A stretch of DNA of 64,000 nucleotides, taken from NCBI GenBank assembly GCA_947259765.1, contig CAMYNG010000001.1, positions 158,219 through 222,218 of the forward strand, in the 5' to 3' direction. Source of the stretch: an uncultured Ectothiorhodospiraceae bacterium. GTDB taxonomy: Bacteria > Pseudomonadota > Gammaproteobacteria > CAMYNG01. A model generated the notes under the pieces. It did no database searches and had not been told where the DNA came from. It saw only the letters and a list, made by a program, of their open reading frames with translations. Below, in pieces: positions 31,612-51,432 of this stretch (positions are counted from its first letter, which is position 1; each line of letters begins with the position of its first letter). The position numbers and the translations under genes are program-made.

Positions 31612-31655
31612 TCAAGAATGCACCCTCGCCACATGGAGACGCCAGGTTACCCCCT

Positions 31656-35146: not shown

Positions 35147-35165
35147 CTAATGCCAAGATCCACGT

Positions 35166-36293
35166 ATGAATCGCATTGATACATTTCTTGAGCTTGTTGT
35201 AAAACAGAAGGGCTCAGATCTACATTTGGTCGCAGGCAATCCGCCACGCATCCGCCTGTTCGGCGAAATGTTTCCCGTGAAATATCGTGAATTGACGGCA
35301 GACGAAAGCCAACAATTTCTCTATGAAATAATGAACGACCGGCAAATCCAGGACTTTGAGCAAAACGGCGACATTGATTTCGCCTATAACGTTCCCGGCT
35401 TATCCCGGTTTCGGGTAAATGTTTTTCATCATATTGCCGGCATGGGCGCCGTATTTCGCGCCGTTCCCAGTGAAATTCAGTCAATGAACGACCTGGGCCT
35501 GCCACCAGTACTTAAAAATCTTGCCCGGCAAAAAAAAGGCCTGATTCTGGTTACCGGTCCAACGGGTTCCGGCAAAACCACCACACTCGCCGCAATGATT
35601 GACTTCATTAATACCGAGCGCAAAGGACATATCATCACCATCGAAGACCCGGTGGAATTTCTTCACAAAAACAAGGGCTGCCTTGTCAGCCAGAGAGAAA
35701 TTGGCGCCCACACCAAAAGTTTCGCTGACGCACTACGTTCTGCATTACGTGAAGATCCGGACGTAATTCTTGTCGGCGAAATGCGCGATTTGGAGACAAT
35801 TGGTCTGGCGGTGACCGCCGCAGAGATGGGTATCCTGGTCATGGCCACATTGCACACCAGTGGTGCACCCGCGTCGGTTGACCGCATTATCAATGTGTTT
35901 CCACCGGGCGAAGAACCCTATATCAGAACAATGCTTTCAACCTCATTGTGCGGGGTTGTATCACAGGAGTTATTACGGCGAGCAGATAATCAAGGCCGTA
36001 TCGCGGCAATTGAGATTTTAGTAAACAATGCCGCCACTTCCAATATTATCCGTGAGGGTAAAACCGAACAACTTGAAAACGCCATCCAGAGTGGTGGTAT
36101 GCAGGGCATGCAAAGCATGGATAATGCCTTGCGCCGATTATTGGATGCAAAGTTGATCACCGGTGACGACGCCTTTATGAAAGCCCGGCATAAGAGTGAT
36201 TTCGAAAAATTTATTGATGTCCCGGATTCGCCCGACGTAGAGGAAATCGTAATTGACTCGGCAAGTGATCAACCTAGTTGGACTAACCAATAA
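35166..36293 (+). CDS. PilT-like hexameric ATPase, paralog 2
   Basis: The ORF has GSDLHLVAGNPPRIRLFGEM, Walker A GPTGSGKTTT and Walker B DVILVGEMRD. Its His box is altered to MGILVMATLHT. It has an acidic C-terminal tail. Confidence 0.85.
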   Translation: MNRIDTFLELVVKQKGSDLHLVAGNPPRIRLFGEMFPVKYRELTADESQQFLYEIMNDRQIQDFEQNGDIDFAYNVPGLSRFRVNVFHHIAGMGAVFRAVPSEIQSMNDLGLPPVLKNLARQKKGLILVTGPTGSGKTTTLAAMIDFINTERKGHIITIEDPVEFLHKNKGCLVSQREIGAHTKSFADALRSALREDPDVILVGEMRDLETIGLAVTAAEMGILVMATLHTSGAPASVDRIINVFPPGEEPYIRTMLSTSLCGVVSQELLRRADNQGRIAAIEILVNNAATSNIIREGKTEQLENAIQSGGMQGMQSMDNALRRLLDAKLITGDDAFMKARHKSDFEKFIDVPDSPDVEEIVIDSASDQPSWTNQ

Positions 36294-36335
36294 CTATCTT
36301 CAACACCCTGTTCAAGTTGTAAAGGCGGGAAATTA

Positions 36336-37004
36336 ATGGCAAAAATAATACTAACACTCGATGGTGCCGTAGTGCGTGAATATCCACTTGATAAAGACAG
36401 TATCAGTGTTGGACGTCGGCATGGAAATGATATTCAACTTAACGACTTAACGGTAAGTGGGCGGCACGCCTTGATTACCTCATTGGGAGACAATGTCTAT
36501 GTTGACGACTTAGGCAGCACCAATGGAACCCTGTTGAATGGCTCACGAGTTACAAAATCAGTTCTTAAACACAGTGATGTCATTCAGACAGGGAATTTTC
36601 AATTCACTTTTTATGCTGAAGACGTGGAAGAGTACGAGCCCACGATGTTCATCAAAGCGGAGATCGACGACACAAAAGAAATCACTACGGGTACAGCCAA
36701 TCATACGGAAACGAAGGGCAGCCCGCTCGCCGCGGTGCGTGTCATCAACGGACCGTTGGCTAAAAAGGTGTTGGAGCTGCGCAAGCCGTTTAATACGTTG
36801 GGTTTCAACGGAGTAAAAATGGCGGTAATAGCGCGTGAGCCGACCGGTTATACGATCTCCGGCTTAAAAAGCAACAAACTGCGCAGAGCATCGGATCTTC
36901 CTATGGTTAACGGCAACTCCATCGGGATGGAGCAAACTCCTTTACAGGAACATGACGTCATTGAACTAGCAGGAACGCAAATGGAACTTTTTTACGTTCA
37001 CTAA
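36336..37004 (+). CDS. FHA-domain protein (N-terminal FHA plus second FHA-like half)
   Basis: The FHA signature reads SVGRRHGNDIQLNDLTVSGRHALI...VDDLGSTNGTLLNG. The C-terminal half (LGFNGVKMAVIA...MVNGNSI...) has a similar beta-rich layout. Confidence 0.8.
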   Translation: MAKIILTLDGAVVREYPLDKDSISVGRRHGNDIQLNDLTVSGRHALITSLGDNVYVDDLGSTNGTLLNGSRVTKSVLKHSDVIQTGNFQFTFYAEDVEEYEPTMFIKAEIDDTKEITTGTANHTETKGSPLAAVRVINGPLAKKVLELRKPFNTLGFNGVKMAVIAREPTGYTISGLKSNKLRRASDLPMVNGNSIGMEQTPLQEHDVIELAGTQMELFYVH

Positions 37005-37069: not shown

Positions 37070-37657
37070 CTAGAATTCGCCTGCGGCGCCGCGATCCATA
37101 ATATCCCGAATGATTTTCTTCACCTTCAGCGCTTCGTTTTTCAGCTCAGGTGGCAAGGGCTCGCCGCCGTAAATCATCATGTCCATATTAAGGGAATACA
37201 ACCAAAGCTGGCCGCTTTTATCTTCAACTAGTGAGACCCGGCAGGGTAAATAGGCGGAAAACGCGTCGTCGTATTCAAGCATTTTTGCTGCCGTGAGCGC
37301 GTTACAAAACATGTAAATCTTTACGAATCGGTACGGATTTCCGGACATGGCTTCGACTTGCTTGTAAAGCGGTAGCTCACCAACATTTTTAATATTATGT
37401 TCGTTGGCAACCGAATGCATGGCTTCTTCGACATCATCGGCCGACAATCCCTCGTTTACCTTTATCTTCCAGACTGTTGCATCTGCAGCATTACCACTCT
37501 CCAGCAACCGTTGCCCCAATGCGCTGTAAACTGCCGCCGCGTTTTCGTCAAACAGACTCAGTCGGTTCAAAACTGACTCGTATCTCACAACCCCGACCAC
37601 CACCACGATCACGAATAACAAGCCAATTAGTGCAAAAAAATTTCTAACAAACGCCAT
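37070..37657 (-). CDS. Membrane-anchored DUF302-domain protein
   Basis: The protein has an N-terminal TM segment (FFALIGLLFVIVVVVGVV) and a DUF302-like core (KIYMFCNALTAAKMLEYD...YLPCRVSLVEDKSGQLWLY). Confidence 0.7.
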   Translation of the reverse strand: MAFVRNFFALIGLLFVIVVVVGVVRYESVLNRLSLFDENAAAVYSALGQRLLESGNAADATVWKIKVNEGLSADDVEEAMHSVANEHNIKNVGELPLYKQVEAMSGNPYRFVKIYMFCNALTAAKMLEYDDAFSAYLPCRVSLVEDKSGQLWLYSLNMDMMIYGGEPLPPELKNEALKVKKIIRDIMDRGAAGEF

Positions 37658-37774
37658 CTAAAGGTTCCTCCGTAAATCCCACGTTTCAACTTAGCCCGAA
37701 ACACACAACGTTGCGTATAAACACCAAAAAACCTGTCGAATTTACCACCTTTTGCCTACTTAGGTACACCCGAT

Positions 37775-38512
37775 TTAGCGTGATGGATCACCGAACGGCA
37801 CGCTAGAATCCCGAGCCGTGGGTGACTGAGGTACCGAATACCGGGGCGGCGGTGGCGGGTAGTAGTAACCGTGCGGATAGGCCCCGAATCCCGGTGCGGG
37901 ACGCGCTGAATACGGTGGGGGATAGGGTGTGTAGCGATTATACGGTACCACATTTCGGGGGTACTGATAAAAATATGGGATCTGACCCGGGCTTGGCGGC
38001 GCACTGTATCTCCCCCGGTCCTTCGGCATGGCCCGATTGGGCACTACCCCTGAACCGGACATGGCGGGCGGCCTCACCTGAGGTGAAACCGGTCGCCAGT
38101 TGGGCGCCGGTGGCGTAGAGGGGCCTACGCGAGGTACACCCTGACCGGCAGGTATTCCTGGACGTGCCCCGGTCGACACACCCGGCGGAACACCATACGC
38201 GTAGCCTGTAGGCCTCGGGCTATTCGCCGCGAGTTCTTGAGGTCCGTTTTCCACAGTGTCCGGTGAGTCGGCAAACCAGAGCAATGTACCAAGAGCGACA
38301 AAAATCAATGTCGGTACAAGCACAAACCGTGATTTCCATTTGGGTACGCTCGCCGGGTTCACATCGTATCGAGACCGAGCCGACCCGGCCACGCCCAATT
38401 CTTCAAGTTTCGCCATGAGTTCCGGCTTTCGTGAAGCCGTGTTGCCCGGTTCGGGCGTGTCCTTACTGACGTCTGAGTCCTTGCCTGATTCTGCCATGAT
38501 TGAGTCACCCAT
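37775..38512 (-). CDS. Single-pass membrane protein with Pro/Tyr/Gly-rich C-terminal domain
   Basis: The protein has a charged N-terminus, one TM segment (FVLVPTLIFVALGTLLWF) and then a ~160-aa low-complexity region (PYFYQYPRNVVPYNRYTPYPPPY...YYYPPPPPRY). It starts 28 nt downstream of the dynamin-like gene. Confidence 0.55.
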   Translation of the reverse strand: MGDSIMAESGKDSDVSKDTPEPGNTASRKPELMAKLEELGVAGSARSRYDVNPASVPKWKSRFVLVPTLIFVALGTLLWFADSPDTVENGPQELAANSPRPTGYAYGVPPGVSTGARPGIPAGQGVPRVGPSTPPAPNWRPVSPQVRPPAMSGSGVVPNRAMPKDRGRYSAPPSPGQIPYFYQYPRNVVPYNRYTPYPPPYSARPAPGFGAYPHGYYYPPPPPRYSVPQSPTARDSSVPFGDPSR

Positions 38513-38540
38513 GTTTTAAGTGAACTTTCTTCATTTAAAC

Positions 38541-40079
38541 CTAGACGAACGAACCTTGCTCTTCCTGATCACTCGCGGCCAAATGCGGTGAACTCTGTGC
38601 CGAGCGCTCGGCGGCGAAACCGCTTGTAATGCCATCCCCCGAAGGCTTTGTGTATTTATCGTTCAAGACCTGCACGTAGTTGTCTGCAGAATCAATGATT
38701 TTCTGAATACGCCGACGCGTACGCCGCCCCCACCCCACGGGTTCTGGGCGAAACAAACTGTGGCGTGGACGGGTATTTTTCAGAAATGCCTGGATTAAGG
38801 AGCGCCGGACCATGTCTGAGTCTGTCTCGCGTTCTATGCGTTGGACCACACCTTTCGCAGCATGTTTTCGCATGCCGAAGTGTGTCACGGCAAATAGGCC
38901 GAATAAAACCGAAACCGTGGCGATTCTTCCCCACAATCCCAGGCCGGAAGTCCACCATTCGGATACGTTCGCGAGTAGCTGTGCTGTGGGTCCTGCGTTT
39001 TGCCCAAATAAATAAATTGCCGCAACAATGATAGCTAAAAACGTTACGACCAGTGTATCTCGCCAACCCACTCCGCGTCGCCAGATCCCCAAAAATCGGA
39101 CTAATTCGGGAATTCGTGATTCTTCAATACTCTTGGCAGTCTTCTCCAATGCGCCAATGACCCGGTACACGCGTTCCACATGAACTTGCTGGATCCGTTG
39201 GTGTATGGCGTCGAGATCGGTGTCTCGTTTTGATTCATACCGAGTGCGTAGTGCCTCATCTTCGATAGGCACGGCTGCATCCGGATTGTAAATACAAAAG
39301 AACTCACCTGCCGTGAGCCCGCTTTTTGCCAACGCCCGTTGCCAGGCCGCAACGACGTCTTCAGGATTATCCTCGCGCGCCGTAGTATCAATCTGATTAA
39401 GGACGTAAATAAATTTATTCGAGTCATTTCGCTCTACCCGATTCGCAACCAGATGCTCCAACGTATCTTGCATCGCACCCGGCTCCGGATGACGCGCATC
39501 GAAGAACACCAAAACAAGATCAGACAGATCAATAATGTAATCCGTAATACGTAGCGTGGAGTTGCGTTGCTCATCCGCGTCAAAGCCGGGAGAGTCGATA
39601 ATAATACTGCCTTTAAGCTTTTCGCTCGGACATGTTTTCATTTGTAAGTATGAGTCGACTCTTCCGCCCTCTCCTGGAGAAACTTTTTCCAATTCGTCTG
39701 CCATTTGGTAAAACGGAAACCTGGGATCCGCATCCAAGGAAATCCCCGGTAACACCCGGTGCGTATCGTCGGAGGAAAAACAGACAACGGTAAATTTATC
39801 GTCGACCGCCTGGGTACCCGTTTCCTGCAATGGAAACTGCAGGTAGTGATTTATAAAAGTCGACTTGCCGGCGGAAAACGTGCCCAGAAACGATATCAAA
39901 GGCCACCAGGGGATTTGTGTTGCGTAAGACTGATTACGCTGTAACAGGCCGGTACGGTAAGCGACTTTGTCCAGCTCTCGAAAACTACGCACGGCGTCGA
40001 CCAATAACTCATTTTCTTCCTGTAGGTGTTGTTCGAGCTTTTTTAGACGCTCTTGAATCGGGTTTCTGTTTGCAAACAT
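38541..40079 (-). CDS. Dynamin-superfamily (EHD/BDLP-like) GTPase with C-terminal membrane hairpin
   Basis: The nucleotide-binding motifs are G1 GTFSAGKSTFINHYL, G3 DSPGF and a G4-like NQID. The middle region is helical. Two hydrophobic segments lie near residues 345-405. Confidence 0.72.
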   Translation of the reverse strand: MFANRNPIQERLKKLEQHLQEENELLVDAVRSFRELDKVAYRTGLLQRNQSYATQIPWWPLISFLGTFSAGKSTFINHYLQFPLQETGTQAVDDKFTVVCFSSDDTHRVLPGISLDADPRFPFYQMADELEKVSPGEGGRVDSYLQMKTCPSEKLKGSIIIDSPGFDADEQRNSTLRITDYIIDLSDLVLVFFDARHPEPGAMQDTLEHLVANRVERNDSNKFIYVLNQIDTTAREDNPEDVVAAWQRALAKSGLTAGEFFCIYNPDAAVPIEDEALRTRYESKRDTDLDAIHQRIQQVHVERVYRVIGALEKTAKSIEESRIPELVRFLGIWRRGVGWRDTLVVTFLAIIVAAIYLFGQNAGPTAQLLANVSEWWTSGLGLWGRIATVSVLFGLFAVTHFGMRKHAAKGVVQRIERETDSDMVRRSLIQAFLKNTRPRHSLFRPEPVGWGRRTRRRIQKIIDSADNYVQVLNDKYTKPSGDGITSGFAAERSAQSSPHLAASDQEEQGSFV

Positions 40080-40201
40080 GACTCTAATCCCACCTTGCTA
40101 ATGAGGTTACAATTTTTCCGGCACTCGCATGCGTCTATGTAAATATCATCGAATTTATTCTTTTTCCCGCTTACGATTACGCATAGTAAAAACTTTATGT
40201 G

Positions 40202-40729
40202 CTACCAGGGCATAAACGAGTTCATAAATGACATTGGACGGGACACACTATTGTTCATTATCGATATGTCGTAGCGCATTTGTGCCATGGAAACATTCAT
40301 TCCGCGCATATTCATCGCCATTTCATGCATGGTGGAGGACTGGTTATCCACCGTCTGGGTCATAATGACCATATTCTTTGCTACCGAATTCATATTCACG
40401 GCAACACTGTTCATGTCCTGGTTGATTGCATCCATCGTGTCCGCAACTCGACCAATATCTTGCGTGAGACTGTAAATGAGGAAAAAGCCATACGCAGCGA
40501 GTAAGACGAATGCAAACAAAGAGGGATACACAATAAGTTCCCAACGTCGTGCGCTCGCCGTAAACGCTCTTGAAAGCTGATCCAGACTCCGGCCCAGACT
40601 ATCGTCCGCCAGAACTGCGGCACGGCCTTTGTTTGCATCAAGCTCACTGCTGTCTGCGTCTTCCGAACCTGCGGGCGTATCATCCTTAACCGGTGTTTCT
40701 GCATCGGGCTGCTTTGAATTTTCTGTCAT
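40202..40729 (-). CDS. Single-pass membrane protein with Met/Asn-rich heptad-periodic C-terminal domain
   Basis: The protein has an acidic N-terminus, a TM segment (LIVYPSLFAFVLLAAYGFFLIYSL) and then DTMDAINQDMNSVAVNMNSVAKNMVIM...MHEMAMNMRGMNVSMAQM...FMNSFMPW. Confidence 0.6.
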   Translation of the reverse strand: MTENSKQPDAETPVKDDTPAGSEDADSSELDANKGRAAVLADDSLGRSLDQLSRAFTASARRWELIVYPSLFAFVLLAAYGFFLIYSLTQDIGRVADTMDAINQDMNSVAVNMNSVAKNMVIMTQTVDNQSSTMHEMAMNMRGMNVSMAQMRYDISIMNNSVSRPMSFMNSFMPW

Positions 40730-40813
40730 TACCGACTCCTGCTGATTTCAAAATTCAGTCTGAACAGCCATCGCTGAACAGACTGATACTGCTAAAAGCA
40801 ACCCAAGCACGAC

Positions 40814-41599
40814 TCACAGCAGTCCCGCCTGTGCCATTTTTCCGTTTAACTGTGATGCCTTCTCAGGATCAAGCCCTTGAATCACCATCAGTAGATAATT
40901 AAGCTGTGCCGTCTGTTTTTGCTCCAAAAGGCGGATCGCCGCTTCAAAAAAGGCGCCGCCAGCTTCTCGCCACTTGCCTTGTGTGTAGTAAACATTACCC
41001 AGTTCACCGAACGCGTCCGCGCTTTCGGGTTCCTGACGTGTGAGAGCCAGATAATGTCGCTCTGCCGATGAGAGATCACCCACGCCGTATGCCGTACGCG
41101 CCTTTTTCAACAACTGGTAGGCTTCGCTTTGTACGCGGTCACTGCTCGCTGTTTCAACACCTTGAGCGGTGTGGTCGGCCTGTGTAACGTCAGGATATTC
41201 GGCTTGAACCAGTGGCGTTTGCGCAACGTCTTGCTGAATCGGGCTTGGCTCTTGTAAAGATGGTGGTGTCGGCTCCGATGCAAGCTCCGACGCTGGAGCC
41301 TGCGTTACTGTGGATTCAACAATCTCACTTTGCAAAACCCTGTCGTCTTCGGGAATCACGGCTACAGATTCGCCCTGCTTTACGGGCTTTGATGCCGCGA
41401 TTGGCGAGGTCGTCGTCTCATCGCTTGAACTTTCAAAACTAAACTTGAGTAACTGTGGAAGCACATGCTCAATGCGTTCGTTTAGCTTGGCATTCCAGAC
41501 CTCGGGCAGCAAAAGTGTCCTATAGTAAAACCCGGCCAACAGTGCCACGAGCACTATAATAAGCACGCTATGACTCAAGATGTGTCTAATGATCTTCAT
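40814..41599 (-). CDS. Membrane-anchored TPR-repeat protein
   Basis: The protein has an N-terminal TM segment (VLIIVLVALLAGFYY), an acidic Ser/Pro/Glu linker and C-terminal TPR-like repeats (AERHYLALTRQEPESADAFGELGNVYYTQGKWREA). Confidence 0.65.
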   Translation of the reverse strand: MKIIRHILSHSVLIIVLVALLAGFYYRTLLLPEVWNAKLNERIEHVLPQLLKFSFESSSDETTTSPIAASKPVKQGESVAVIPEDDRVLQSEIVESTVTQAPASELASEPTPPSLQEPSPIQQDVAQTPLVQAEYPDVTQADHTAQGVETASSDRVQSEAYQLLKKARTAYGVGDLSSAERHYLALTRQEPESADAFGELGNVYYTQGKWREAGGAFFEAAIRLLEQKQTAQLNYLLMVIQGLDPEKASQLNGKMAQAGLL

Positions 41600-41662
41600 C
41601 CGTCAGCACCCCTGTTTGCAAAATAATCGTCGCCTGAAATCTTGTCGTCGCATGTCATCAGC

Positions 41663-42445
41663 TCATCTATTGAACTGCGAATTTTCTCTTGAGCCCGGAG
41701 GATTCGATGCACGCGTAAAATCATCGGGCACCACAAACAAGGTTGGTGATTGTTTACCGACCTTAATATTTCGGAGTTCGCGCACAAACCCGCCTTCAAA
41801 TTCCTCGCGAATCGCTATGCGAAGTTCCGGGTCGTACCATTGCACTGACTGGAGTTGCTTGCCTCCGGGTTGGGTTGCACGCATCTCCCATCTTTCGACG
41901 TCACGACCGTCTATTTTGCCTTTACCCGCCATGCTCATTTCAGCCACTGTTCCGTCCGGAAATAATTCACGTATGGGAAATTTTCGTTCCACTTCAATCC
42001 AATGCAGGCTGCGCAGATTTTGGCTGTCGACCGTGCGAACCATTTCCCATTTTTCCGCTTTTAGGCCCGCAATGATTTCAACATCCAACTTTCGACAACG
42101 GGAATTAACTCGATCTGCGCATGGACTGAAATTTTTTCTAGCCTCGCCGGTTGGTATTGTCTGCTGTGAAATTTTCTGCTCGACAAATTGCTTTACGTCC
42201 GGCCAATATAAAATGCGTTTTTGTTGTTGCGGATAAAAAATTTCCACAACAGTTCGACCGTTGATCACTGACTCAGTGCGCACGGCGTGTTTACTCACGT
42301 TCATCTGCGCATTCATTACCAGTCCTCCAGGTGAAATTTGCAGTGCATCTGCGGAAAACTCAGCAGCCACTCCTGTCGCGTTAACAACAGGAGCGCAAGC
42401 CAATAACACGCACGTAAATAAACTCGATTTCAATTTGGAGAACAT
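41663..42445 (-). CDS. Exported/lipo-protein of unknown function
   Basis: The 260-aa protein has a signal sequence (MFSKLKSSLFTCVLLACAPVVNA) and a beta-rich body. The track ORF runs on to 42964 only because an alternative frame of the neighbouring Gly-Tyr repeat gene is open. I trimmed it to the ATG at 42445. Confidence 0.6.
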   Translation of the reverse strand: MFSKLKSSLFTCVLLACAPVVNATGVAAEFSADALQISPGGLVMNAQMNVSKHAVRTESVINGRTVVEIFYPQQQKRILYWPDVKQFVEQKISQQTIPTGEARKNFSPCADRVNSRCRKLDVEIIAGLKAEKWEMVRTVDSQNLRSLHWIEVERKFPIRELFPDGTVAEMSMAGKGKIDGRDVERWEMRATQPGGKQLQSVQWYDPELRIAIREEFEGGFVRELRNIKVGKQSPTLFVVPDDFTRASNPPGSRENSQFNR

Positions 42446-42530
42446 TGATTTTATCTCCACAGAATCGTTGCGCCTGCTGATCGCGTAGCTTATCGGGGAT
42501 CGCGCACGTCCTTGTGCAAGTCCCCCCGGG

Positions 42531-43055
42531 TTATTTGTTGGCGCCAGCCGGAGGTTGCGCCGGCGGTTGCGCGGGCGGCGCCCAACCCTGACCGCCCCAG
42601 CCTGGACCATAACCTGGGCCATAACCCGGACCATAGCCACCGCCACCGTAACCAGGTCCATAACCGCCACCGCCGTAGCCGTAACCGCCATAGCCTGGGC
42701 CACGGCCGCCGTAGCCTGGGCCGTAGCCACCGTAGCCTGGACCATAGCCACCGTAGCCTGGACCATAGCCACCGTAACCTGGACCATAGCCACCGTAACC
42801 TGGACCATAGCCACCGTAACCTGGACCATAGCCGCCGTAGCCTGGGTGGCCGTAACCCCGTCCGTAGCCACTACCCCGACCGTAGCCGGAACCGGAGCCA
42901 CGCATACTGAAGTCCATGTCGCCCCAGCCGTCGCCCCAACCATTGCCGTAACCGTTATTGCCAAACGGTCCCCACCAGGCCTGGGCCGAAGTTAACGGCA
43001 TGGCGGTTGCGCCGACCAGCGCCGCGGCTGCCATTAGATGTTTTACACGTTTCAT
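42531..43055 (-). CDS. Secreted Gly/Tyr/Pro/Trp-rich repeat protein (sulfur-globule-protein-like composition)
   Basis: The signal peptide ends ...PLTSAQA/WW. The mature part is almost only G, Y, P, W and R, with six PGYGGYG heptads plus variants, and it ends in an (AQPP)n tail. Confidence 0.7.
   Translation of the reverse strand: MKRVKHLMAAAALVGATAMPLTSAQAWWGPFGNNGYGNGWGDGWGDMDFSMRGSGSGYGRGSGYGRGYGHPGYGGYGPGYGGYGPGYGGYGPGYGGYGPGYGGYGPGYGGYGPGYGGRGPGYGGYGYGGGGYGPGYGGGGYGPGYGPGYGPGWGGQGWAPPAQPPAQPPAGANK
42699..42845 (-). repeat. Tandem 21-nt coding repeat (PGYGGYG x6 plus PGYGGRG)
   Basis: The plus-strand unit ccaccgta(a/g)cctggaccatag is repeated head-to-tail. It is in frame within the 42531-43055 CDS. 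Confidence 0.85.
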
Positions 43056-43290
43056 GATAATTGCTCCTGAAATGATGTTAACAACGTTCCACTGCGGCAG
43101 ATGTAATACCTACCGCGCCACTCTCTCTTGGTTAAAACCTACAGTGTGCAAATGTAGAGAGTCCCATCTGCCCACCACCGGCAAAGTTCTAACGGGATAA
43201 CACGAACAACACCCGCAAAGCTTTACCCTCCCTTTAAGACGACACGCGTTAACTTGCAGCAAAATTTTTCTGTCAACTCGCGCCATCTTG

Positions 43291-43980
43291 TTACCAGGCT
43301 CCAAATGGCCAGTTCATCCCCGTCAGCCCCGACGGATAACCACCATAAGGTGCCCCATAAATCGGATAGCCTGGATACATACCCAATCCGGGTGTCACTC
43401 CCGGATAGCCCCATGCCGGCCCCGGCAACCCACCCCCGGCATACGGATTGCCCCATCCACCCAGCCCATATCCACCCGCTCCATACACATTGCCAGCGTA
43501 GGGATAGGCGGGATAGGAATAGGGATGTAAATAGCCTCCCGCCGCATAGCCGGGAGGAGTTGATGGAGAATAAGAAGCCGTGCCACGTTGTTCATAACAC
43601 GGCCGATAGTGCCGGTCATATGAGCGATAAGATCGCCGCGTCGAACGCGGCAGTTCACCCCACGGGCGCGACTCGCTCGGAATTTCAAACAGATGATCAC
43701 GCACAGGTGCGCTTCGTTCACGCTCGTATCGTGGTGGAATCTGACCGAACGAATCAACGTAATACGAACCGTCGACACGTGACGCACTTCGGCGTCGGCC
43801 GGCGGGAGTTGGTTCAGTTTCCACAACCGAAGACCAACGAGACGGCCAACGATCCGGTGAATAGGTCACGCCGTTCTGTTGGCCAAAGCTTTCCGCGTTA
43901 GCAGACAGCGCAGGACACAGCAGGCTCAGGAGAATCAGACCACGTGCCGGGGGTGCGTATACTGTTGAAAGTTTCATCAT
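43291..43980 (-). CDS. Secreted protein with Arg/Ser/Tyr-rich middle and Gly/Tyr/Pro-rich C-terminus
   Basis: The signal peptide reads MMKLSTVYAPPARGLILLSLLCPALSANA/E. The C-terminus reads YPYAGNVYGAGGYGLGGWGNPYAGGGLPGPAWGYPG...YPIYGAPYGGYPSG. I chose the start ATG at 43980, preceded by GGTGAGG. Confidence 0.6.
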   Translation of the reverse strand: MMKLSTVYAPPARGLILLSLLCPALSANAESFGQQNGVTYSPDRWPSRWSSVVETEPTPAGRRRSASRVDGSYYVDSFGQIPPRYERERSAPVRDHLFEIPSESRPWGELPRSTRRSYRSYDRHYRPCYEQRGTASYSPSTPPGYAAGGYLHPYSYPAYPYAGNVYGAGGYGLGGWGNPYAGGGLPGPAWGYPGVTPGLGMYPGYPIYGAPYGGYPSGLTGMNWPFGAW

Positions 43981-44031
43981 GACCTCACCCTTAAAACCTT
44001 TGTGCATGATTCGCGTGACAAAATCTCGATC

Positions 44032-45498
44032 CTATCGCTGGGGCACGTTCGCCGGAGGACGACCTGTGTTCCAACCAGGAGGTGGTGCCCACTGTCCGTA
44101 GGGATATCCATAACCATACTGTGGCGGATATGGCCGCTGGGCCGGCGCAGGACCTGTCCCGGTTTGGTCAGGCATCTGCGGTTGCATCGGTGCGTTGAAT
44201 CGCGGTGGTCCCGACTTTTGCGTCCAATTGGGCTGCACGGGAGGTGCAGATCGATGCGCGGGAGCTTGTGACCACTCCGGCTGCGCCGGTGGTTGATATT
44301 GAGGTGGCGGTCGCTGTGCCCAATCCGGTCTTACCGGAGGCGCGGTTCGTTGGCCCGGTGCTTGTGATCTATCCGGGCGCGCCGGTGGTTGATATTGAGG
44401 CGGCGGTCGCTGTGCCCAGTCCGGTCTTACCGGAGGAGCAGTTCGCTGGCCCGGTGCTTGTGACCACTCAGGACGCGCCGGCGGTTGATATTGAGGCGGC
44501 GGTCGCTGTGCCCAGTCCGGTCTTCCCGGAGGCGCGGTTCGTTGGCCCGGTGCTTGCGACCACTCAGAACGCGCCGGTGGTTGGTACTGAGGCATCGGCC
44601 GCTGCGTCCACTCCGGTCGTGTCGGCGGTGCGTTTTGTTGCACGGGAGTTTGTGATCCGTCTGGCCGAGTCGATGGTTGAGTGTGTGGCGTCGGCCGCTG
44701 TGCCCACTCCGGTCGTGCGGGAGGTGCAGCTCGTTGTGTCGCTGCTTGCGATCCGTCGGAACGTTTTGGCGGTTGAGTATTTGGCAGTGGCCTTTGCGCC
44801 CAGTCCGGTCGAGTTGGCGGCGCGCCTCGATGCATGGGTGCTTGTGTATCGCCGGAACGAGCCGGTGGTCGATAATGCGGCCGCGGTTGTTGCGCCGGTT
44901 GCTGCCATTCGGGACGTGTGGGTACCTGATAACGCGGCATCGGTCGCTGTGCCCAGTCAGATCGTGGCGGCGGCGTGGTTCGTTGTGTCGGTGCTTGTGA
45001 TCCGCCGGGATGCGTCGGAGGTTGACTGTACGGCATCGGCGGTACCGGCCTCTGCGCCCAGTCCGGTCGAGCGGCAGGCGCGGTTCGCTGTGCTGGAACC
45101 CGTGATCTGTCGGAGCGAGCTGGCGGCTGAGTGTGCGGCATCGGCTGTGATGTCCATCCGGGTCGAACAGCTGGTTCGGCAGTTTGTGCCCTTGGCGTAC
45201 CGGTTTGAGCGGGCGCCCGCTGTGGCCAAACTGGAGCTTGTTGTGCGGAACGTTGCTGTTGTGACCAAGCAGGCATATTGGAGTAACGACCCGTCTGCGG
45301 CACGGCTCGCGGTTGACTCGGATAACCATCTTTCGACTGTGACCGATAAGGTCCGGTGGGCGGAGGCGGCATAACTTCGGAAGCGCCGTCTTGCGCAGTT
45401 TCCGCCGCAAAAGCAGTAAACGTAAAAGTGCAGGACATCAGCAGCAAGTACGCCGTAGCCAATTTGAAGTTCGAACTCTTTCTGCGCGATACTTTCAT
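44032..45498 (-). CDS. Secreted Pro/Gln/Arg/Trp-rich protein built from ~10 tandem 32-aa repeats
   Basis: The signal peptide reads MKVSRRKSSNFKLATAYLLLMSCTFTFTAFA/AE. The repeat unit is RPDWAQRPPPQYQPPARPEWSQAPGQRTAPPV. The C-terminus is Tyr/Gly-rich (PQYGYGYPYGQW). Confidence 0.65.
   Translation of the reverse strand: MKVSRRKSSNFKLATAYLLLMSCTFTFTAFAAETAQDGASEVMPPPPTGPYRSQSKDGYPSQPRAVPQTGRYSNMPAWSQQQRSAQQAPVWPQRAPAQTGTPRAQTAEPAVRPGWTSQPMPHTQPPARSDRSRVPAQRTAPAARPDWAQRPVPPMPYSQPPTHPGGSQAPTQRTTPPPRSDWAQRPMPRYQVPTRPEWQQPAQQPRPHYRPPARSGDTQAPMHRGAPPTRPDWAQRPLPNTQPPKRSDGSQAATQRAAPPARPEWAQRPTPHTQPSTRPDGSQTPVQQNAPPTRPEWTQRPMPQYQPPARSEWSQAPGQRTAPPGRPDWAQRPPPQYQPPARPEWSQAPGQRTAPPVRPDWAQRPPPQYQPPARPDRSQAPGQRTAPPVRPDWAQRPPPQYQPPAQPEWSQAPAHRSAPPVQPNWTQKSGPPRFNAPMQPQMPDQTGTGPAPAQRPYPPQYGYGYPYGQWAPPPGWNTGRPPANVPQR
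44197..45165 (-). repeat. Tandem 96-nt coding repeat array (about 10 units, the three at 44236-44523 nearly identical)
   Basis: RP(D/E)W(A/T)QRP recurs at protein residues 155, 190, 241, 273, 305, 337, 369 and 401, with a 32-residue period over the last seven. Each unit is itself two 16-aa half-units. Confidence 0.8.
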
Positions 45499-45555
45499 TT
45501 GCTTTGTCCTCATCATTAATTCCGTCACCAATTTTTCAGCTCGACAATCACATCA

Positions 45556-48500
45556 TCAACCTGGTTCATCCTTTGGAGAAGTGACACGTCGCTTAGCACG
45601 ACTCGGTACTCGCTTTCCTTTCACAGTTTTTTTCACCGTTGCTTTCTTCGCTGTCTTTTTTATATTAGTTGTTTTGCTGGTCGTACTGCCGGCAGGTTTT
45701 TTTGCTTTCCGCGTAGTCTTCCGGGTGCGGGAGGAAGAAGTCGCGGCTGCAGATTTTTTACCTACCGATTTTTTCTTTGCAGTCGATCGGGACCGAGCTT
45801 GTGTTTTGGCAGTTGATGGTTTTGAAGCTGTCTCAGCAACAGGCTTGACCGCGGCGGGCGCGGAAGATGGCGCCGAGGGTGACCCTCCGCCGCCGGGCGT
45901 ACCACCGTCTGGCGTTCCATCAGGAGTTGAGCCAGAGTCATTCCCGGATCGGCGAAAACGCTGCAGGAGGCTTGCGATCGCCATGCGCAACATCATGTAA
46001 ATCGCACGCAGGATATAAAACGCCCACGTCACCACACCGACGACTTTACCCCACAACACCAATGCCAATGGCATCTTGTTCGCCGCCGTAATCGGCTCAT
46101 CCGCAGCGGTTGCAATCGCTGCGTCACCCGGAACATCGGAAAAATAGAATTGCTTGCGCGCGCTAATGCAACCCAAGGGAATAACTACAAGCGTTAGGAT
46201 TGTCGCAACACCCGTACCAAATAGCAGACTTACCGCCATCCCCTGAAAAATAGGATCGGTAATGATCGCTGCAGCACCGGCCATCAGTGTGAGCGCAGTT
46301 ATAAAGATAGGTCGCATGCGAATTTGTCCAGCAGCAATCACGGCCTCGACAATATCGTTGTTTTGCTCCGCCTCCTTTTTGACGAATTCCACCAGCAGAA
46401 TCGAGTTGCGCACAATGATGCCCGCCAGCGCGATAAACCCAATCATTGACGTTGCAGTGAACTCCGCGCCGACCAGCCAGTGACCGGGAATTATGCCAAT
46501 TAGGGTAAGCGGAATCGGCGCCATAATCAGGCCGCCCAGCGTAAAGTTCTTGAACTCCCAAACAATGAGTCCGTAAATCAGAACCAACGCTGCCATAAAC
46601 GCGAGACCCATATCACGAAACGTTTCATAGGTAACCGTCCATTCGCCCGTCCATTCAATACCGGAACGAATATCGCTTTTCGGCGGACCAATTAAGCCAA
46701 GTGGCATCCCGCTAATGGTTACACCGTCCGGCGTGGTATATTTTGCAAGCAGGTCTTCGACATTGAACATGCCGTAAATTGGCGCACCGAGTTCGCCTTC
46801 CATTTCGCCCGTGACATACTCAATTGGGCGCAGGTCCTTATGAAATATCACCGAATCTTCCGGGCGGGGCACAAACCGGCCTAACTCGGCCAGCGGGATG
46901 GTGCCACCACTTTTCGACATAATGGGTAGATTCTTAAGGCGTTGGATCTGGGCGCGGACGGGTAACGGAACCTGAATAACGATATAGGTAGGCTCGCGTA
47001 CCACCCGCCGTTTAATGTCACCAAGCTTAAAGCCGCCCATGGACATCGCAAGATTTTGATTTATCGTATCTACCGAAACGCCATAACGAACTGCCTTTTC
47101 GATGTCTACCTCAAACTGCCAAAATTCAAACTGAGCAGAGAGATAATTATCAACATCGACAACGCCGTCCGCTTCTTCAAACATGGCAGTCATATCACGG
47201 GCGACTTGACGACGCGTATCGGCATCCGGCCCATAAACCTCCGCAACAACGGTTTGTAAAACCGGTGGACCAGGGGGCATCTCTACTACCTGTATGCGTA
47301 CGCCTGTGGCCTTTACGTCTGGACGCGCATCAATGAACTCGTTAAGTAAGTGGCGTGCCGCGACGGCAATCTCATGACTGCCTCGCTCACGCTCGTTTTT
47401 GTCCAGCAACATGACCTGAATATCAGATTGCCAGGGTTGAGATCGAAGATAGTAATGGCGAACCATTCCGTTAAAGTTAAAGGGTGACGACGTACCCACG
47501 TAGGATTGTAATGCCGTAACCTCCGGGATCCCCCGCAATTTCTCGGCAAGTGAATGCGTCACGTTTGCAGTGACGGGAAGCGCCGTTCCTTCCGGCATGT
47601 TTATTACAACATTGAATTCCGGTTTGTTATCAAAAGGCAACATTTTGACCGTGACGATGTTGAAATAAAACATCGCACAGGCCAGGAACGTCGCGCCAAT
47701 AAGACCAAACATGAAAGTCAAACCTAGTACACGATTATTGCATAGCGGATTCATGCAAGGACGATAGACTCGACCGATCCATGCCCTGATTCTCTCCTCG
47801 CGAACCTCTGCTTTTTTCAACGCCTCTAGTTGCGGTCGAACCCGCATCGCGAACCATGGTGCAAACACAAAAGCGGCAATAAGTGAGAAAAACATCGCCG
47901 CCGAGCCCAGCACCGGTATGGGACGCATATAAGGCCCCATCAGGCCGCTGACGAACCCCATAGGCAGCAAGGCTGCAATGATCGTTAGCGTAGCGAGTAT
48001 GGTTGGATTACCTACTTCACGAACCGCATCGATAGCGATCGCCAGTGTCGTTTTTCCAGCTGCCAACCAGCGTCTGAAAATGTTTTCCACGACGACGGTT
48101 GCATCGTCAACGAGTATTCCTATTGAGAAAACAAGCGCAAAGAGACTGACCCGATCGATGGTGTAGTCAATTATCCAGGCCGACCAAATAGTGACCAGGA
48201 TTACGATTGGAATAATTGTAATTACGACGGAAGCGGCACGTAGCCCCAGGCCGATAAGGCAAAGAATACTTACGGCAATCGCTGCTTCAAACAGTGCAGT
48301 CAGGAGCTCATTGACTTTATCATTCGCTGTCTTGCCGTAATCACGCGTAATTGCGATCTCTACATTCCCGGGAATTAGGTTTCCCTTTAAGGACTCAAGT
48401 TTTTCAATTACAGCATTAGCGACGGTAACTCCGTTAGTTCCAATTTTTTTTGCGATGGCGACTGTAACCGCCGGGGCGCCGTTAACGTCCTGTGCATCCG

Positions 48501-49407
48501 CTGCTTGTGCCGAGCCACTGTAGAATCCCGCTACCTGGCCGGTTTCTTCCGGCGCCTGAAATACCTGCGCGACATCTCGCACATACACCGGTGCGCCGTT
48601 ATAGACACCCACTACAAGACGCGAGATTTCCTGTGCACTACGTAGAAACGCCCCTGTGTATACCGTAAACGCCTTGTCACTTCCCTCTACAAATCCCGCC
48701 GATTGTTCCGCGTTGGCCGTTTGAATAGTTTGTGCAACCTGCGCCACGCTAAGACCAAACCCACTCAGGCGTTCAGGATAGACCTCGACGCGTATTTGTT
48801 CGGCCCGGCCACCTACAACAAAACCGTTACCCGTATTCGGCACCTGTTCCAGGCGCTGCAAAACATCAAACGCGAGTGTGCGAAGATTTCCATCATCAAC
48901 ATCCTTTGACCAGAGTGTCACAGTGACAATGGGGACATCATCTATTCCCACCGGCTTGACCAATGGCATGGAGACACCGGGTGGAATCATGTCAAGATTG
49001 GACTGCAACTTGTCATGTACCTTGACAATGGATTCGCCCAGGTTTTCGCCGACCAGGAAGCGGACGGTAACGATGTTTGCTCCCCGCTTCGTAGCCGAGT
49101 AGACATGCCGCACACCCGGAATCTCGCTCATGATCCTTTCAAGTGGATCCGTAACCAGGCTGGTTACCTGCTCTGCTGACGCCCCTGGGTATTGCACGTA
49201 GATATCCACCATGGGAACAGAGATTTTGGGATCTTCCTGCCGCGGCGTAAAAAACAGCCCCAGTAAACCGATGGCCAGGAATGCCATCATCAGTAGAGGA
49301 GTTACCGGTGAATTTATAAACTGACGTGCCGTACTACCGGCGATACCCAGCTCTGGATTTAGTTCCGGCTCTGGTTGTTTATCAGTTTGTTGTACTTTTT
49401 CCGTCAC
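45556..49407 (-). CDS. RND (AcrB/AcrD/AcrF-type) efflux permease with ~190-aa C-terminal extension ending in a Lys/Ala/Ser/Thr-rich basic tail
   Basis: The 1283-aa ORF has a 12-TM RND layout with two large periplasmic loops. After the last canonical TM segment it adds an extra hydrophobic segment (MPLALVLWGKVVGVVTWAFYIL) and then a 130-aa low-complexity tail. Confidence 0.9.
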   Translation of the reverse strand: MTEKVQQTDKQPEPELNPELGIAGSTARQFINSPVTPLLMMAFLAIGLLGLFFTPRQEDPKISVPMVDIYVQYPGASAEQVTSLVTDPLERIMSEIPGVRHVYSATKRGANIVTVRFLVGENLGESIVKVHDKLQSNLDMIPPGVSMPLVKPVGIDDVPIVTVTLWSKDVDDGNLRTLAFDVLQRLEQVPNTGNGFVVGGRAEQIRVEVYPERLSGFGLSVAQVAQTIQTANAEQSAGFVEGSDKAFTVYTGAFLRSAQEISRLVVGVYNGAPVYVRDVAQVFQAPEETGQVAGFYSGSAQAADAQDVNGAPAVTVAIAKKIGTNGVTVANAVIEKLESLKGNLIPGNVEIAITRDYGKTANDKVNELLTALFEAAIAVSILCLIGLGLRAASVVITIIPIVILVTIWSAWIIDYTIDRVSLFALVFSIGILVDDATVVVENIFRRWLAAGKTTLAIAIDAVREVGNPTILATLTIIAALLPMGFVSGLMGPYMRPIPVLGSAAMFFSLIAAFVFAPWFAMRVRPQLEALKKAEVREERIRAWIGRVYRPCMNPLCNNRVLGLTFMFGLIGATFLACAMFYFNIVTVKMLPFDNKPEFNVVINMPEGTALPVTANVTHSLAEKLRGIPEVTALQSYVGTSSPFNFNGMVRHYYLRSQPWQSDIQVMLLDKNERERGSHEIAVAARHLLNEFIDARPDVKATGVRIQVVEMPPGPPVLQTVVAEVYGPDADTRRQVARDMTAMFEEADGVVDVDNYLSAQFEFWQFEVDIEKAVRYGVSVDTINQNLAMSMGGFKLGDIKRRVVREPTYIVIQVPLPVRAQIQRLKNLPIMSKSGGTIPLAELGRFVPRPEDSVIFHKDLRPIEYVTGEMEGELGAPIYGMFNVEDLLAKYTTPDGVTISGMPLGLIGPPKSDIRSGIEWTGEWTVTYETFRDMGLAFMAALVLIYGLIVWEFKNFTLGGLIMAPIPLTLIGIIPGHWLVGAEFTATSMIGFIALAGIIVRNSILLVEFVKKEAEQNNDIVEAVIAAGQIRMRPIFITALTLMAGAAAIITDPIFQGMAVSLLFGTGVATILTLVVIPLGCISARKQFYFSDVPGDAAIATAADEPITAANKMPLALVLWGKVVGVVTWAFYILRAIYMMLRMAIASLLQRFRRSGNDSGSTPDGTPDGGTPGGGGSPSAPSSAPAAVKPVAETASKPSTAKTQARSRSTAKKKSVGKKSAAATSSSRTRKTTRKAKKPAGSTTSKTTNIKKTAKKATVKKTVKGKRVPSRAKRRVTSPKDEPG

Positions 49408-49458
49408 GGAAGAATTCTCAGTACGATTCTCTTTTCCAACTGCCGAGGTATCAGTAAA

Positions 49459-50676
49459 TTATTGTGCTGTGTCGTTAGAATCAGATTTCCACGACGACGA
49501 CATTCCCGCCGGTGGCGCTGCAACAACTTGCTCACCTGACCGTATACCGGAAAGTACCGTGACATGGTTGTCACCCACAGACTCACCAAGTCGAATTAAA
49601 CGAAGCTCGGTTTTGTTGTTCTGTCCAAGAACAAAAACCGCCGGCAGACTTCCGCGCCAGAGAATGGCCGAGGCAGGGATCATCGGTAGCGACTGAATCG
49701 GTGCGTCAGCATCGGGCACCATAACTTCAGCATACATACCTGGCGCGGCTGGTACGCCAATGGGTAAATCGAATTTAACAGTCACGGTATGGCGTGCGGT
49801 ATCCGCGACCGGAAAGATCTGTGCGACACGGGCGTTTACGTGCCGGTCGCCAACGTCCAGAACTGCAGGTACCACCATGTCTCGACGTAGTGAGCGCATA
49901 AGTCGTGCAGGAACTTCGATTCGAAGTTGCAGATCGCGCGTATCCGCGAAATGCAAAAGTGGTTGACCGGGTTGAACAATGTCACCCTGCTCCACCAACT
50001 TGCTGACAATTACTCCTGTGAATGGTGCGACTGACCTGCTGTCGCGTAATTTCGCTTCAACTTCCTGCAAACGCGAATAGGCACCCCAGTGCTGCCCTTG
50101 TGCCTTGCCTAATCGGGAACGATAGGAGTAAAGATCCGCCTGTCTTTCAAGCCAGGGGTTACCGTAACCCATGCCGCTGCCCACGTTTCGTGTAAAAAAT
50201 TGATCAAACAACGACGGCAAGCCCATGCCCGGCATTTTTCCTATATCGCGCGACTGCGGTGCCATAAACTCTTTTCCGTATTGCACCTGAGCATTACTCA
50301 TGTCATAGGCGGAATTTCCAATTTCCGCCAAGGCCTGCTGTCGGCGCGCACGCAACTCGTCATCATCTACCGCAACTAGAAGCTCTCCGGCTTCGAACCA
50401 ATCACCCTCTATCCCGGCCAAATAGCGAATCTGTCCGGGTAACTGCGCAGACAGAGTGACCGTACGGTACGGCACAACCGAACCGCCGAGAATCACCGCA
50501 GCGCCGGTATTGGTGTTTGTTACGGTAAATAAACCAGGCTGATTCGCGGCCTGTGCTGTGCTCGTTGCTAGCGGATAGGAACTTTCTCCAAAACCGCTCG
50601 CACCAACTTCCGCAGAAATTACCAAACACAGCAAACAAGCAGCATATCGAAAAACTTCTGGAGTAAATTTTTTCAT
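49459..50676 (-). CDS. RND efflux periplasmic adaptor (membrane fusion protein, HlyD family)
   Basis: The protein has a signal peptide, a lipoyl/hairpin/beta-barrel layout (VAVDDDELRARRQQA..., VIVSKLVEQGDIVQPGQPLL...) and lies directly upstream of the RND gene. Confidence 0.85.
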   Translation of the reverse strand: MKKFTPEVFRYAACLLCLVISAEVGASGFGESSYPLATSTAQAANQPGLFTVTNTNTGAAVILGGSVVPYRTVTLSAQLPGQIRYLAGIEGDWFEAGELLVAVDDDELRARRQQALAEIGNSAYDMSNAQVQYGKEFMAPQSRDIGKMPGMGLPSLFDQFFTRNVGSGMGYGNPWLERQADLYSYRSRLGKAQGQHWGAYSRLQEVEAKLRDSRSVAPFTGVIVSKLVEQGDIVQPGQPLLHFADTRDLQLRIEVPARLMRSLRRDMVVPAVLDVGDRHVNARVAQIFPVADTARHTVTVKFDLPIGVPAAPGMYAEVMVPDADAPIQSLPMIPASAILWRGSLPAVFVLGQNNKTELRLIRLGESVGDNHVTVLSGIRSGEQVVAAPPAGMSSSWKSDSNDTAQ

Positions 50677-50775
50677 GATTCAACTCAATGCTTTCTTTGA
50701 GAGAACCCGCAATGGGATTTTGTTTTTAATTTGATAAAACCGGTAAAAGCTGTCGATGCCAGTCGGATCACATGC

Positions 50776-51171
50776 TTACGCACGCCCCATCACGGCGAAA
50801 CTTTTTATAAACGGTGCAGCCATACGCGGATCCTTGATCATGGCCGCGTAATCACCCTTGTTGAATTTGAGTTTTCGAGAGGTATAGGCCATACCCAGGC
50901 CCATCATGCCAGGTGGTTTGTCTATCCATTTCACCCAGTTATTCGTTGATGCACGCAAATCCCAGTTCAGTTCCTGCCCACTAAACGCTTCAGCAGAAAC
51001 GGCCTTGCCATTCTCAACCGTTAGCACCACTTTGGGGTCGGCGTCATCTTCAAGCCCGTAGCCGATTGCCGACGAGAAACCGATTTTTGCTAGTTCATCC
51101 GCCAATCCCGGCTCATTGTTCCAGGCGTCGACATAATTCTGCATCCACTCTTTGGAAAATAGTTCTGACAT
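50776..51171 (-). CDS. SCP2 (sterol-carrier-protein-2)-like small lipid-binding protein
   Basis: The 131-aa protein has an SCP2-like pattern (...WDLRASTNNWVKWI...MAYTSRKLKFNGDYAAMIK... approx.). I trimmed the start to the ATG at 51171 (MSELFSKEW). Confidence 0.65.
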   Translation of the reverse strand: MSELFSKEWMQNYVDAWNNEPGLADELAKIGFSSAIGYGLEDDADPKVVLTVENGKAVSAEAFSGQELNWDLRASTNNWVKWIDKPPGMMGLGMAYTSRKLKFNKGDYAAMIKDPRMAAPFIKSFAVMGRA

Positions 51172-51217
51172 ACTGCACCCCCGTGTCGCATTTTCATTGT
51201 TGTCGTTCAGTTGAAGT

Positions 51218-51233
51218 AGCAAATGACATGCCA
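51218..51233 (-). promoter_or_regulatory. Sigma-54 (-24/-12) type promoter for the SCP2-adaptor-RND transcription unit
   Basis: The minus strand reads TGGCAT-GTCAT-TTGCT, which has the exact GG-N10-GC spacing of TGGCAC-N5-TTGCW. It lies 47-62 nt upstream of the SCP2 start. A GAFTGA enhancer-binding protein gene is divergent. Confidence 0.6.
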
Positions 51234-51355
51234 TTTTTTAACCACTTGTTTTACAAAGAAATATTTCTATTGCCAAGTGTGATGTTGCATCTGGGAAATA
51301 TCATCTCCTGCCATCAACCCACTGATTTAATTAGAGATAAACACAAATTTAAGAG

Positions 51356-51390: not shown

Positions 51391-51432
51391 ACTTGTATAA
51401 ATTGCATGAACGAAGTACGGGAAGGTGGAGTA

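Follow-up and report, generated by a model that had tools for sequence, protein, structure and literature searches.

An exported heptad-repeat protein and its gene

We analysed a 64-kb stretch of DNA from an uncultured Ectothiorhodospiraceae bacterium (contig CAMYNG010000001.1; the whole stretch is called the window here, and positions without a locus name refer to it). The subject of the analysis was a gene on the minus strand at 42531-43055, listed as an open reading frame (ORF) of 174 amino acids with an ATG start, whose product carries an array of PGYGGYG heptads. We call it the SGP gene, after the Sulphur globule protein family (PF17228) to which its product, judged by its sequence, belongs. 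The following features were recognized at the locus, all of them on the minus strand.

42531-43055, minus strand: gene of the 174-aa pre-protein of the SGP family, stop codon at 42531-42533 (ORF list and family evidence)
43064-43068, minus strand: Shine-Dalgarno sequence AGGAG, 8 nt upstream of the ATG, in the upstream sequence GCAGTGGAACGTTGTTAACATCATTTCAGGAGCAATTATC-ATG
42978-43055, minus strand: predicted Sec-type signal peptide, residues 1-26, MKRVKHLMAAAALVGATAMPLTSAQA (read from the sequence)
42846-42977, minus strand: conserved SGP head, residues 27-70, WWGPFGNNGYGNGWGDGWGDMDFSMRGSGSGYGRGSGYGRGYGH, matching PF17228 positions 1-64 (held-out profile score)
42678-42845, minus strand: heptad array, residues 71-126, six PGYGGYG units, PGYGGRG and PGYGGYG (Tandem Repeats Finder and codon table)
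42720-42845, minus strand: the six perfect PGYGGYG units, residues 71-112 (codon by codon)
42699-42719, minus strand: the PGYGGRG unit (codon by codon)
42678-42698, minus strand: a further perfect PGYGGYG unit (codon by codon)
42534-42677, minus strand: degenerate Gly/Tyr/Pro segment and Ala/Pro/Gln tail, residues 127-174, ...APPAQPPAQPPAGANK (sequence)

The n-, h- and c-regions expected of a Sec signal peptide in this family could all be read from the sequence: a basic n-region (MKRVKH), a hydrophobic core and AQA before WW, after which the protein continues with WWGPFGNNGYGNGWGDGWGDMDF. The xAxA-WW junction was the same in aligned relatives, and the match to PF17228 begins at residue 27. The mature protein has 148 amino acids, a mass of 14.3 kDa and an isoelectric point of 8.6. 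With 69 Gly, 25 Tyr, 19 Pro and 6 Trp residues (47% Gly, 17% Tyr and 13% Pro) it is small, Gly/Tyr-rich and repetitive, as is expected of the SGP family. Its head is rich in Trp, Gly and Asp and includes (GSGYGR)2, and its C-terminal end, PPAQPPAQPPAGANK, is an AQPP tail; tails rich in Ala and Pro and ending in Lys or Gln were common to the aligned relatives. Leu, Ile, Val, Glu and Cys are absent from the mature protein and no Asp occurs beyond residue 48. An earlier reading made from the sequence only had described a 26-residue signal peptide ending in AQA, the (GSGYGR)2 segment, an AQPP ending and a near absence of aliphatic and acidic residues after residue 50, and all of these were found on the minus strand as described.

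The only secondary structure in an AlphaFold2 model (built with 15 sequences) was a helix in the signal peptide, at residues 2-17, and the mean pLDDT (predicted local distance difference test) was 50.8. A scan for promoters and terminators at the SGP gene returned nothing credible; the one site that resembles a promoter overlaps the ATG, and between the gene and its neighbours no terminator was detected.

Relationship to the sulfur globule proteins

A single-sequence search of 5.8 billion proteins gave 46 matches, 18 of them carrying PF17228 ('SGP, Sulphur globule protein'), and a profile search gave 151 proteins, most of them with this domain. When 1.84 billion representatives were searched exhaustively with HMMER, only 314 were found at E<=0.001. 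Among the names of the homologues were 'Sulphur globule protein' and two used by NCBI, 'sulfur globule protein CV1' and 'sulfur globule family protein'. An alignment of 18 sequences showed one architecture throughout, consisting of a signal peptide, AW(W)GP, GWGDG..GD.DF.MS, GSGYGRG.GYG, a Gly/Tyr/Pro core and an Ala/Pro tail. To control for composition, we built a profile from 17 relatives (most with PF17228), leaving the target out, and compared it with 200 shuffles of residues 27-70. Against the held-out profile the full sequence gave 99.9 bits and residues 27-70 alone gave 44.6 bits; the best of the 200 shuffles reached 5.9 bits. The similarity to accepted family members is thus specific to residue order and not merely compositional. 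Since the held-out profile scores the head and not the repeat, membership rests on the signal peptide and the head. We conclude from these sequence comparisons that the SGP gene product is a repeat-expanded, sub-threshold member of an already known family, the sulfur globule proteins of the SgpA/SgpB type (PF17228). The suggestion in the sequence-only reading that the protein is sulfur-globule-protein-like is therefore borne out, both by the order-specific similarity and by an architecture shared throughout with PF17228 proteins, among them several called CV1 or 'sulfur globule family protein' by NCBI. Among species-representative genomes, searched with a 4-sequence alignment, relatives occurred at at least seven loci in Thiohalomonas, Thiogranum, two Sedimenticola metagenome-assembled genomes (MAGs) and other Gammaproteobacteria; no Allochromatium sequence was among the matches listed in this genome-collection scan.

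Sulfur globule proteins have been studied experimentally in Allochromatium vinosum. There, SgpA and SgpB (CV1 and CV2) are Sec-exported, mutually redundant structural coat proteins of the periplasmic globules, SgpC influences the expansion of globules and SgpD co-localises with them; the globule envelope is the sole studied function of the SGP family (PMC10386293, PMC10892978). Like SgpA and SgpB, the window protein is small, predicted to be Sec-exported, Gly/Tyr-rich and repetitive with regularly spaced Pro residues, and the N-terminal region of its mature form matches positions 1-64 of the profile of that type. It differs from this type in its 148 mature residues (roughly 80-140 in the inspected relatives after removal of the signal peptide), in its eight-unit heptad array with seven PGYGGYG units and in the failure of the full-length sequence to pass curated thresholds. 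Like SgpC and SgpD, which are exported globule proteins, it is predicted to be exported and is repetitive with regularly spaced Pro; these two, however, belong to other sequence families, and SgpD is reported to be essentially restricted to Chromatiaceae and partly helical.

On these grounds the window protein is probably an SgpA/SgpB-type globule protein, exported and located in the coat of periplasmic sulfur globules. Of the functions considered, storage of sulfur has the best support and is likely as far as sequence comparison can tell. We infer export, a location in the envelope, sulfur as the cargo and an adhesive role of the repeats. In the mechanism that we propose, the pre-protein would be exported via Sec and cut after AQA. 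The product would be a 14-kDa, mildly basic and intrinsically disordered protein with a head rich in Trp, Gly and Asp, a core of Tyr/Gly/Pro heptads and a tail of Ala and Pro. It would self-associate into a thin protein coat on periplasmic globules of zero-valent sulfur, by analogy with A. vinosum SgpA and SgpB. The head may serve as a family-specific part for assembly or recognition, and the (PGYGGYG)n core as a multivalent aromatic 'sticker' region that would adhere to itself and to hydrophobic sulfur; the core would evolve fast through gain and loss of 21-nt units.

Several results weigh against this interpretation. The full-length protein had no Pfam or NCBIfam match even at E<=10, probably because the repeat triggers the composition correction of HMMER. 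The search with the family profile that the sequence-only reading had proposed as a check thus failed with the full-length sequence; with the N-terminal portion it gave a match that speaks for membership but stays below the curated threshold: residues 1-84 matched PF17228 with E=3.1e-5 and 25.1 bits, residues 27-81 aligning with positions 1-64 of the 93 in the profile, so that residue 27, the predicted mature N-terminus, falls on position 1. This match lies 1.6 bits under the Pfam gathering score of 26.7 bits. The closest relative (P0001) similarly scored 24.1 bits with PF17228, and other relatives scored 33-59 bits. Residues 71-174 gave no position-specific signal (-26 bits against the held-out family profile), and the repeat region attracts purely compositional matches. 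The link to the experimentally studied Sgp proteins runs via PF17228 and the NCBI names, and none of the dsr, sox, sqr or fcc genes was found in the window.

Phase-separating 'sticker-spacer' sequences resemble the Tyr/Gly/Pro heptads, a likeness that we draw as an analogy only. The same applies to the Gly/Tyr low-complexity proteins of eukaryotes with which we compared the window protein (high-Gly/Tyr keratin-associated proteins, plant glycine-rich proteins, arthropod cuticle proteins, FUS-type domains and the heptads of the RNA polymerase II C-terminal domain (CTD)): composition and short aromatic repeats are alike, whereas order-specific similarity is absent. Phase separation by the SGP protein is suggested by this analogy only; the lack of a fold in the AlphaFold2 model is compatible with it and is no evidence for it, and we found no published report that links Sgp proteins to phase separation.

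The heptad core and its turnover

In Tandem Repeats Finder the array appeared as a 21-nt unit repeated 7.4 times (42691-42845; 93% matches, score 240). The six perfect PGYGGYG units of the sequence-only reading were recovered at residues 71-112, and the further perfect unit at 42678-42698 was one that it had not listed. Its description of perfect nucleotide-level repeats holds for the peptide but was overstated for the DNA: out of eight heptads only the three central units (42762-42824) are identical in nucleotide sequence, and the remaining perfect units differ at synonymous third positions only. Differences confined to synonymous positions argue for selection on the peptide. Since three units are identical in DNA and the other perfect units differ synonymously, the array is maintained at the peptide level; it is not the product of one very recent slippage event.

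For comparison we used loci recovered from genomes and metagenomes (designated by L numbers), with orthology judged by shared neighbours. Syntenic orthologues from uncultured marine Gammaproteobacteria (L012, L014, L015, L001, L025 and L026) agreed with the window gene in neighbourhood, in signal peptide and in the WWGPFGNNG...GWGDG head. Their cores were of different kinds: the units were composed of Asn, Gly and Tyr (GNGYGNGY...) in L012, L014 and L015, and the core of L001, a locus with two tandem paralogues, was built of PGYGGWGG. A further locus, L019, carried an expansion of its own, (GGYPGYGGYPGGG)x4, and had no conserved neighbours on its short contig. Measured from signal peptide to stop, the inspected relatives had 105-166 amino acids, and the window protein with 174 was the longest and no outlier.

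Because the cores of orthologues differ strongly, variation of the length of the heptad array by slippage is plausible. This raises the question of whether the protein could be exposed and differ in repeat number between cells through slippage, and so act as a determinant of a variable surface or of phage evasion and not as a granule coat. Three identical 21-nt units in tandem, eight related units overall, a unit length that is a multiple of three and so keeps changes in frame, and the very different cores of the orthologues would all agree with such a role. The synonymous differences, however, indicate an older, selected array and not ongoing hypermutation. An outer-membrane anchor and a sorting signal are both absent from the protein, and where the family has been studied it is periplasmic. 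Furthermore, a metagenome scan with the N-terminal 72 amino acids found no SGP sequence of the same species, hence no same-species variant, and no relative above 61% identity. We regard this role as very improbable.

The repeat also bears on the reality of the gene and of its length. Several long ORFs overlap the SGP stretch in further frames, also on the opposite strand, and we take these to be by-products of the repeat. Four metagenome contigs (L013, L014, L017 and L018) terminate within the SGP gene, from which it follows that assemblers tend to break in the low-complexity core and that the repeat copy number in the window could be wrong, as in any assembly. One could argue from the ORFs that the repeat opens in several frames on both strands, and from the four related contigs that end within the homologous gene, that the SGP frame is a spurious ORF arising from a non-coding tandem repeat or an assembly artefact. 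This frame, however, is the only one with a Shine-Dalgarno sequence, a signal peptide and homology to 151 proteins that is specific to residue order, and it is the frame in which the units differ by synonymous substitutions; the chance that the ORF is spurious is therefore close to negligible.

We discarded matches of the repeat to a cuticle protein of a spider and to a plant glycine-rich protein, which reflect composition, and matches to the RNA polymerase II CTD in a PDB sequence search, which are an artefact of heptad periodicity. PGYGGYG heptads, in 5-9 copies, were also observed in a second exported family among metagenome proteins (P0002, P0006 and P0017), which has a different head (WF..NPYDEWDPRYWMEEME..DDDD) and no Pfam match. 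The heptad thus arose or spread in more than one protein family.

The conserved gene block around the SGP gene

In its gene content the window is unremarkable chromosomal DNA of a Gram-negative bacterium, with rpsB-tsf-pyrH-frr-uppS-cdsA-dxr-rseP-bamA-skp-lpxD-fabZ-lpxA, glnD, dapD, the gene for PBP1 and those for two PilT-like ATPases. Relatives of its S2 protein showed 82-86% identity in MAGs of Gammaproteobacteria and 78% in Thioalkalispiraceae. A cluster for signalling and pilus functions at 28768-37004 (a FHA-GAF-HD-GYP-type protein, a DUF6812 protein, a HEAT-repeat Ser/Thr kinase, two PilT/T2SSE ATPases and a FHA protein) has no evident link to the SGP gene. Around the SGP gene lies a block of roughly 14 kb on the same strand, at 37070-51234, with a divergent activator gene beside it. 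The other features of this region, and the sole Rfam match in the window, were as follows.

51355-52779, plus strand: divergent activator with PAS, sigma-54-interaction and HTH_8 domains (Pfam); a 56%-identical gene lies in the same place in L026
51218-51233, minus strand: candidate sigma-54-type -24/-12 element TGGCATGTCATTTGCT (pattern search, 1 mismatch to TGGCAC-N5-TTGCW)
50776-51234, minus strand: 152-aa protein, no family match; 65-69% identity in L025 and L026
49459-50676, minus strand: membrane fusion protein (MFP), a periplasmic adaptor (Pfam HlyD, NCBIfam)
45556-49407, minus strand: resistance-nodulation-division (RND) permease, 1283 aa (Pfam ACR_tran, NCBIfam)
44032-45531, minus strand: secreted Pro/Gln/Arg/Trp-rich repeat protein, 499 aa, start codon uncertain (sequence)
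43291-44007, minus strand: 238-aa protein with signal peptide, Gly/Tyr/Pro-rich tail and terminal Trp (sequence)
41663-42445, minus strand: DUF4412-like protein, 260 aa, with signal peptide and possible lipobox LLAC, beginning 85 nt past the SGP stop
40814-41599, minus strand: membrane-anchored TPR protein, 261 aa (Pfam TPR_16); position kept in L015, L022, L025 and L026
40202-40729, minus strand: DUF948-like membrane protein, ending ...MPW (weak DUF948 match, 25.9 bits, below the cut-off)
38541-40079, minus strand: dynamin-family GTPase, 512 aa, with C-terminal hydrophobic segments (Pfam Dynamin_N)
37775-38512, minus strand: 245-aa protein with one membrane segment and a Pro/Tyr-rich tail (sequence)
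37070-37657, minus strand: DUF302 protein (Pfam); 54-63% identity in L025 and L026
12736-12824, minus strand: t44 RNA, a gammaproteobacterial rpsB leader (RF00127, 76.5 bits), ordinary in its place upstream of rpsB

The similarity of the 152-aa protein to its relatives begins at about residues 19-22, so that the start of its gene is probably M22 at 51171 and not the ATG at 51234; a PDB sequence search gave no meaningful match. The sigma-54-type element lies about 47 nt upstream of this probable start. The count of the pattern in the whole window is not above chance, and we credit the element as a candidate because it sits opposite the divergent sigma-54 activator gene. The adaptor and the permease are 53-73% identical to their counterparts next to SGP in L006, L013, L017, L025 and L026. 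The permease has a basic C-terminal tail of about 200 amino acids (residues ~1080-1283) rich in Lys, Ala, Thr and Ser, and a similar tail was observed in L006; the homologues in L025 and L026 are of similar length (1289 and 1393 aa).

The 499-aa protein contains a 96-nt (32-aa) tandem repeat in 4.9 copies at 44264-44736 (RPDWAQRPxPxYQPPAR...) and has a Tyr/Gly-rich C-terminus. Near its N-terminus is a PPPxGPYxS motif, which recurs in the far shorter proteins encoded at this place in L022, L025 and L026, and N-terminal similarity was also detected in L013 and L017. Weak homologues of the 238-aa protein are encoded directly upstream of SGP in L012, L013, L017 and L018. In all nine block loci that have a gene directly upstream of SGP, the window included, its protein ends in Trp (window 43291-44007, minus strand; L001 93-815; L006 3362-3832; L012 245-754; L013 2508-3059; L017 3142-3651; L018 589-1128; L025 9168-9797; L026 9325-9894). 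The endings are GAW, PGW, FIW, YMW, MLW, YRW, YSW, YGW and GMW, following tails rich in Gly, Tyr, Pro and Met, and the terminal Trp could be a shared C-terminal signal. The DUF948-like proteins likewise end in ...MPW or ...IPW.

Downstream of SGP, homologues of the DUF4412-like protein with 35-44% identity lie directly next to the SGP gene in L001, L012, L015, L025 and L026. Those of L001 and L015 match PF14371 (DUF4412) above threshold, unlike the window protein, for which an AlphaFold2 model from the single sequence (pLDDT 39.5) was unusable. Homologues of the DUF948-like protein occur in L015, L022 and L025; its C-terminal half is strikingly rich in Met and Asn (NMNSVAKNMVIMTQ...MHEMAMNMRGMNVSMAQM...), as is that of the L022 homologue. 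The dynamin-family GTPase has the G domains of EHD4 and EHD2 as its nearest solved structures and shows 53-65% identity in L022, L025 and L026.

The content of the block recurs in nearly the same order in L025 (2671-15714) and L026 (1025-15102), in entirely different flanks, and part of it was found in L001, L006, L012, L013, L015, L017, L018 and L022/L023 (L022 291-5194), all of these loci having been found through SGP. Compared with the window, the enzyme-like components of L025 and L026 are 53-69% identical and the DUF4412-like, TPR and DUF948 proteins 35-49%. In six relatives a gene for a ParA/MipZ-like ATPase lies downstream of SGP, after the DUF4412-like gene where that is present; the window does not have it. 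The SGP genes of L004, L024, L027 and L028 stand outside the block, so the linkage between SGP and the block is clade-specific. The sgp genes of A. vinosum, described as separate transcription units, differ in this respect from the window gene with its large conserved block. The sgpD gene of A. vinosum adjoins a regulator gene and a gene for a hydrophobe/amphiphile exporter, the latter reported not to be co-regulated (PMC10386293, PMC10892978), and these neighbours resemble the RND pump and the sigma-54 activator of the window. An uncultured gammaproteobacterium (L007, 104-6247) has an SGP gene followed by a different MFP-RND pair, 25-26% identical to that of the window. Together with the published sgpD-exporter adjacency, this pair gives a hint of a recurrent association between sgp and RND genes.

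The block also suggests another explanation. The window protein could belong to the SGP family by descent and be a structural part of a different envelope assembly, made by the surrounding block and unrelated to sulfur storage; such an assembly could be a periplasmic or membrane-associated matrix. Speaking for this are the conservation of the same-strand block of about 14 kb in L025 and L026, and partly elsewhere, with differing flanks, the presence in it of three more secreted proteins of low complexity with many Pro and aromatic residues, and the finding that no block gene has a known sulfur function. The named relatives, however, come from sulfur-oxidising genera, the globule envelope is the only studied function of the family, and the four SGP genes outside the block show the family to be independent of it. 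We consider this explanation unlikely, and the protein as a component of the sulfur globule coat remains the reading that we prefer.

The SGP gene may belong to a conserved and so far undescribed 'globule biogenesis' unit of about 14 kb in a clade of uncultured marine Gammaproteobacteria, a proposal that we make tentatively and with some doubt. The unit would comprise the sigma-54 activator and the candidate sigma-54 promoter, the 152-aa protein, the MFP-RND pair with its basic tail, the DUF4412-like putative lipoprotein, the PPPxGPYxS, terminal-Trp and membrane-anchored Pro/Tyr-rich proteins, the TPR and DUF948 proteins, the dynamin-like GTPase and the DUF302 protein; the ParA/MipZ-like ATPase would be counted in from the relatives only. 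We found no published report of sgp genes linked with dynamin, DUF4412, or membrane-remodelling or positioning proteins. If its parts act together, the block would supply coat proteins together with membrane-remodelling and positioning functions for periplasmic sulfur globules.

Taken alone, the SGP gene is of modest interest; with it, a small family that was already known gains a divergent member with an expanded repeat. The gene shows that the central region of the family turns over completely between orthologues and that the head is kept, and for this reason curated models miss such members. To our knowledge, the nucleation, coating, enlargement and positioning of periplasmic sulfur globules are poorly understood. 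The conserved block is the more novel and more useful lead and, if functional, would yield concrete candidates for globule biogenesis.

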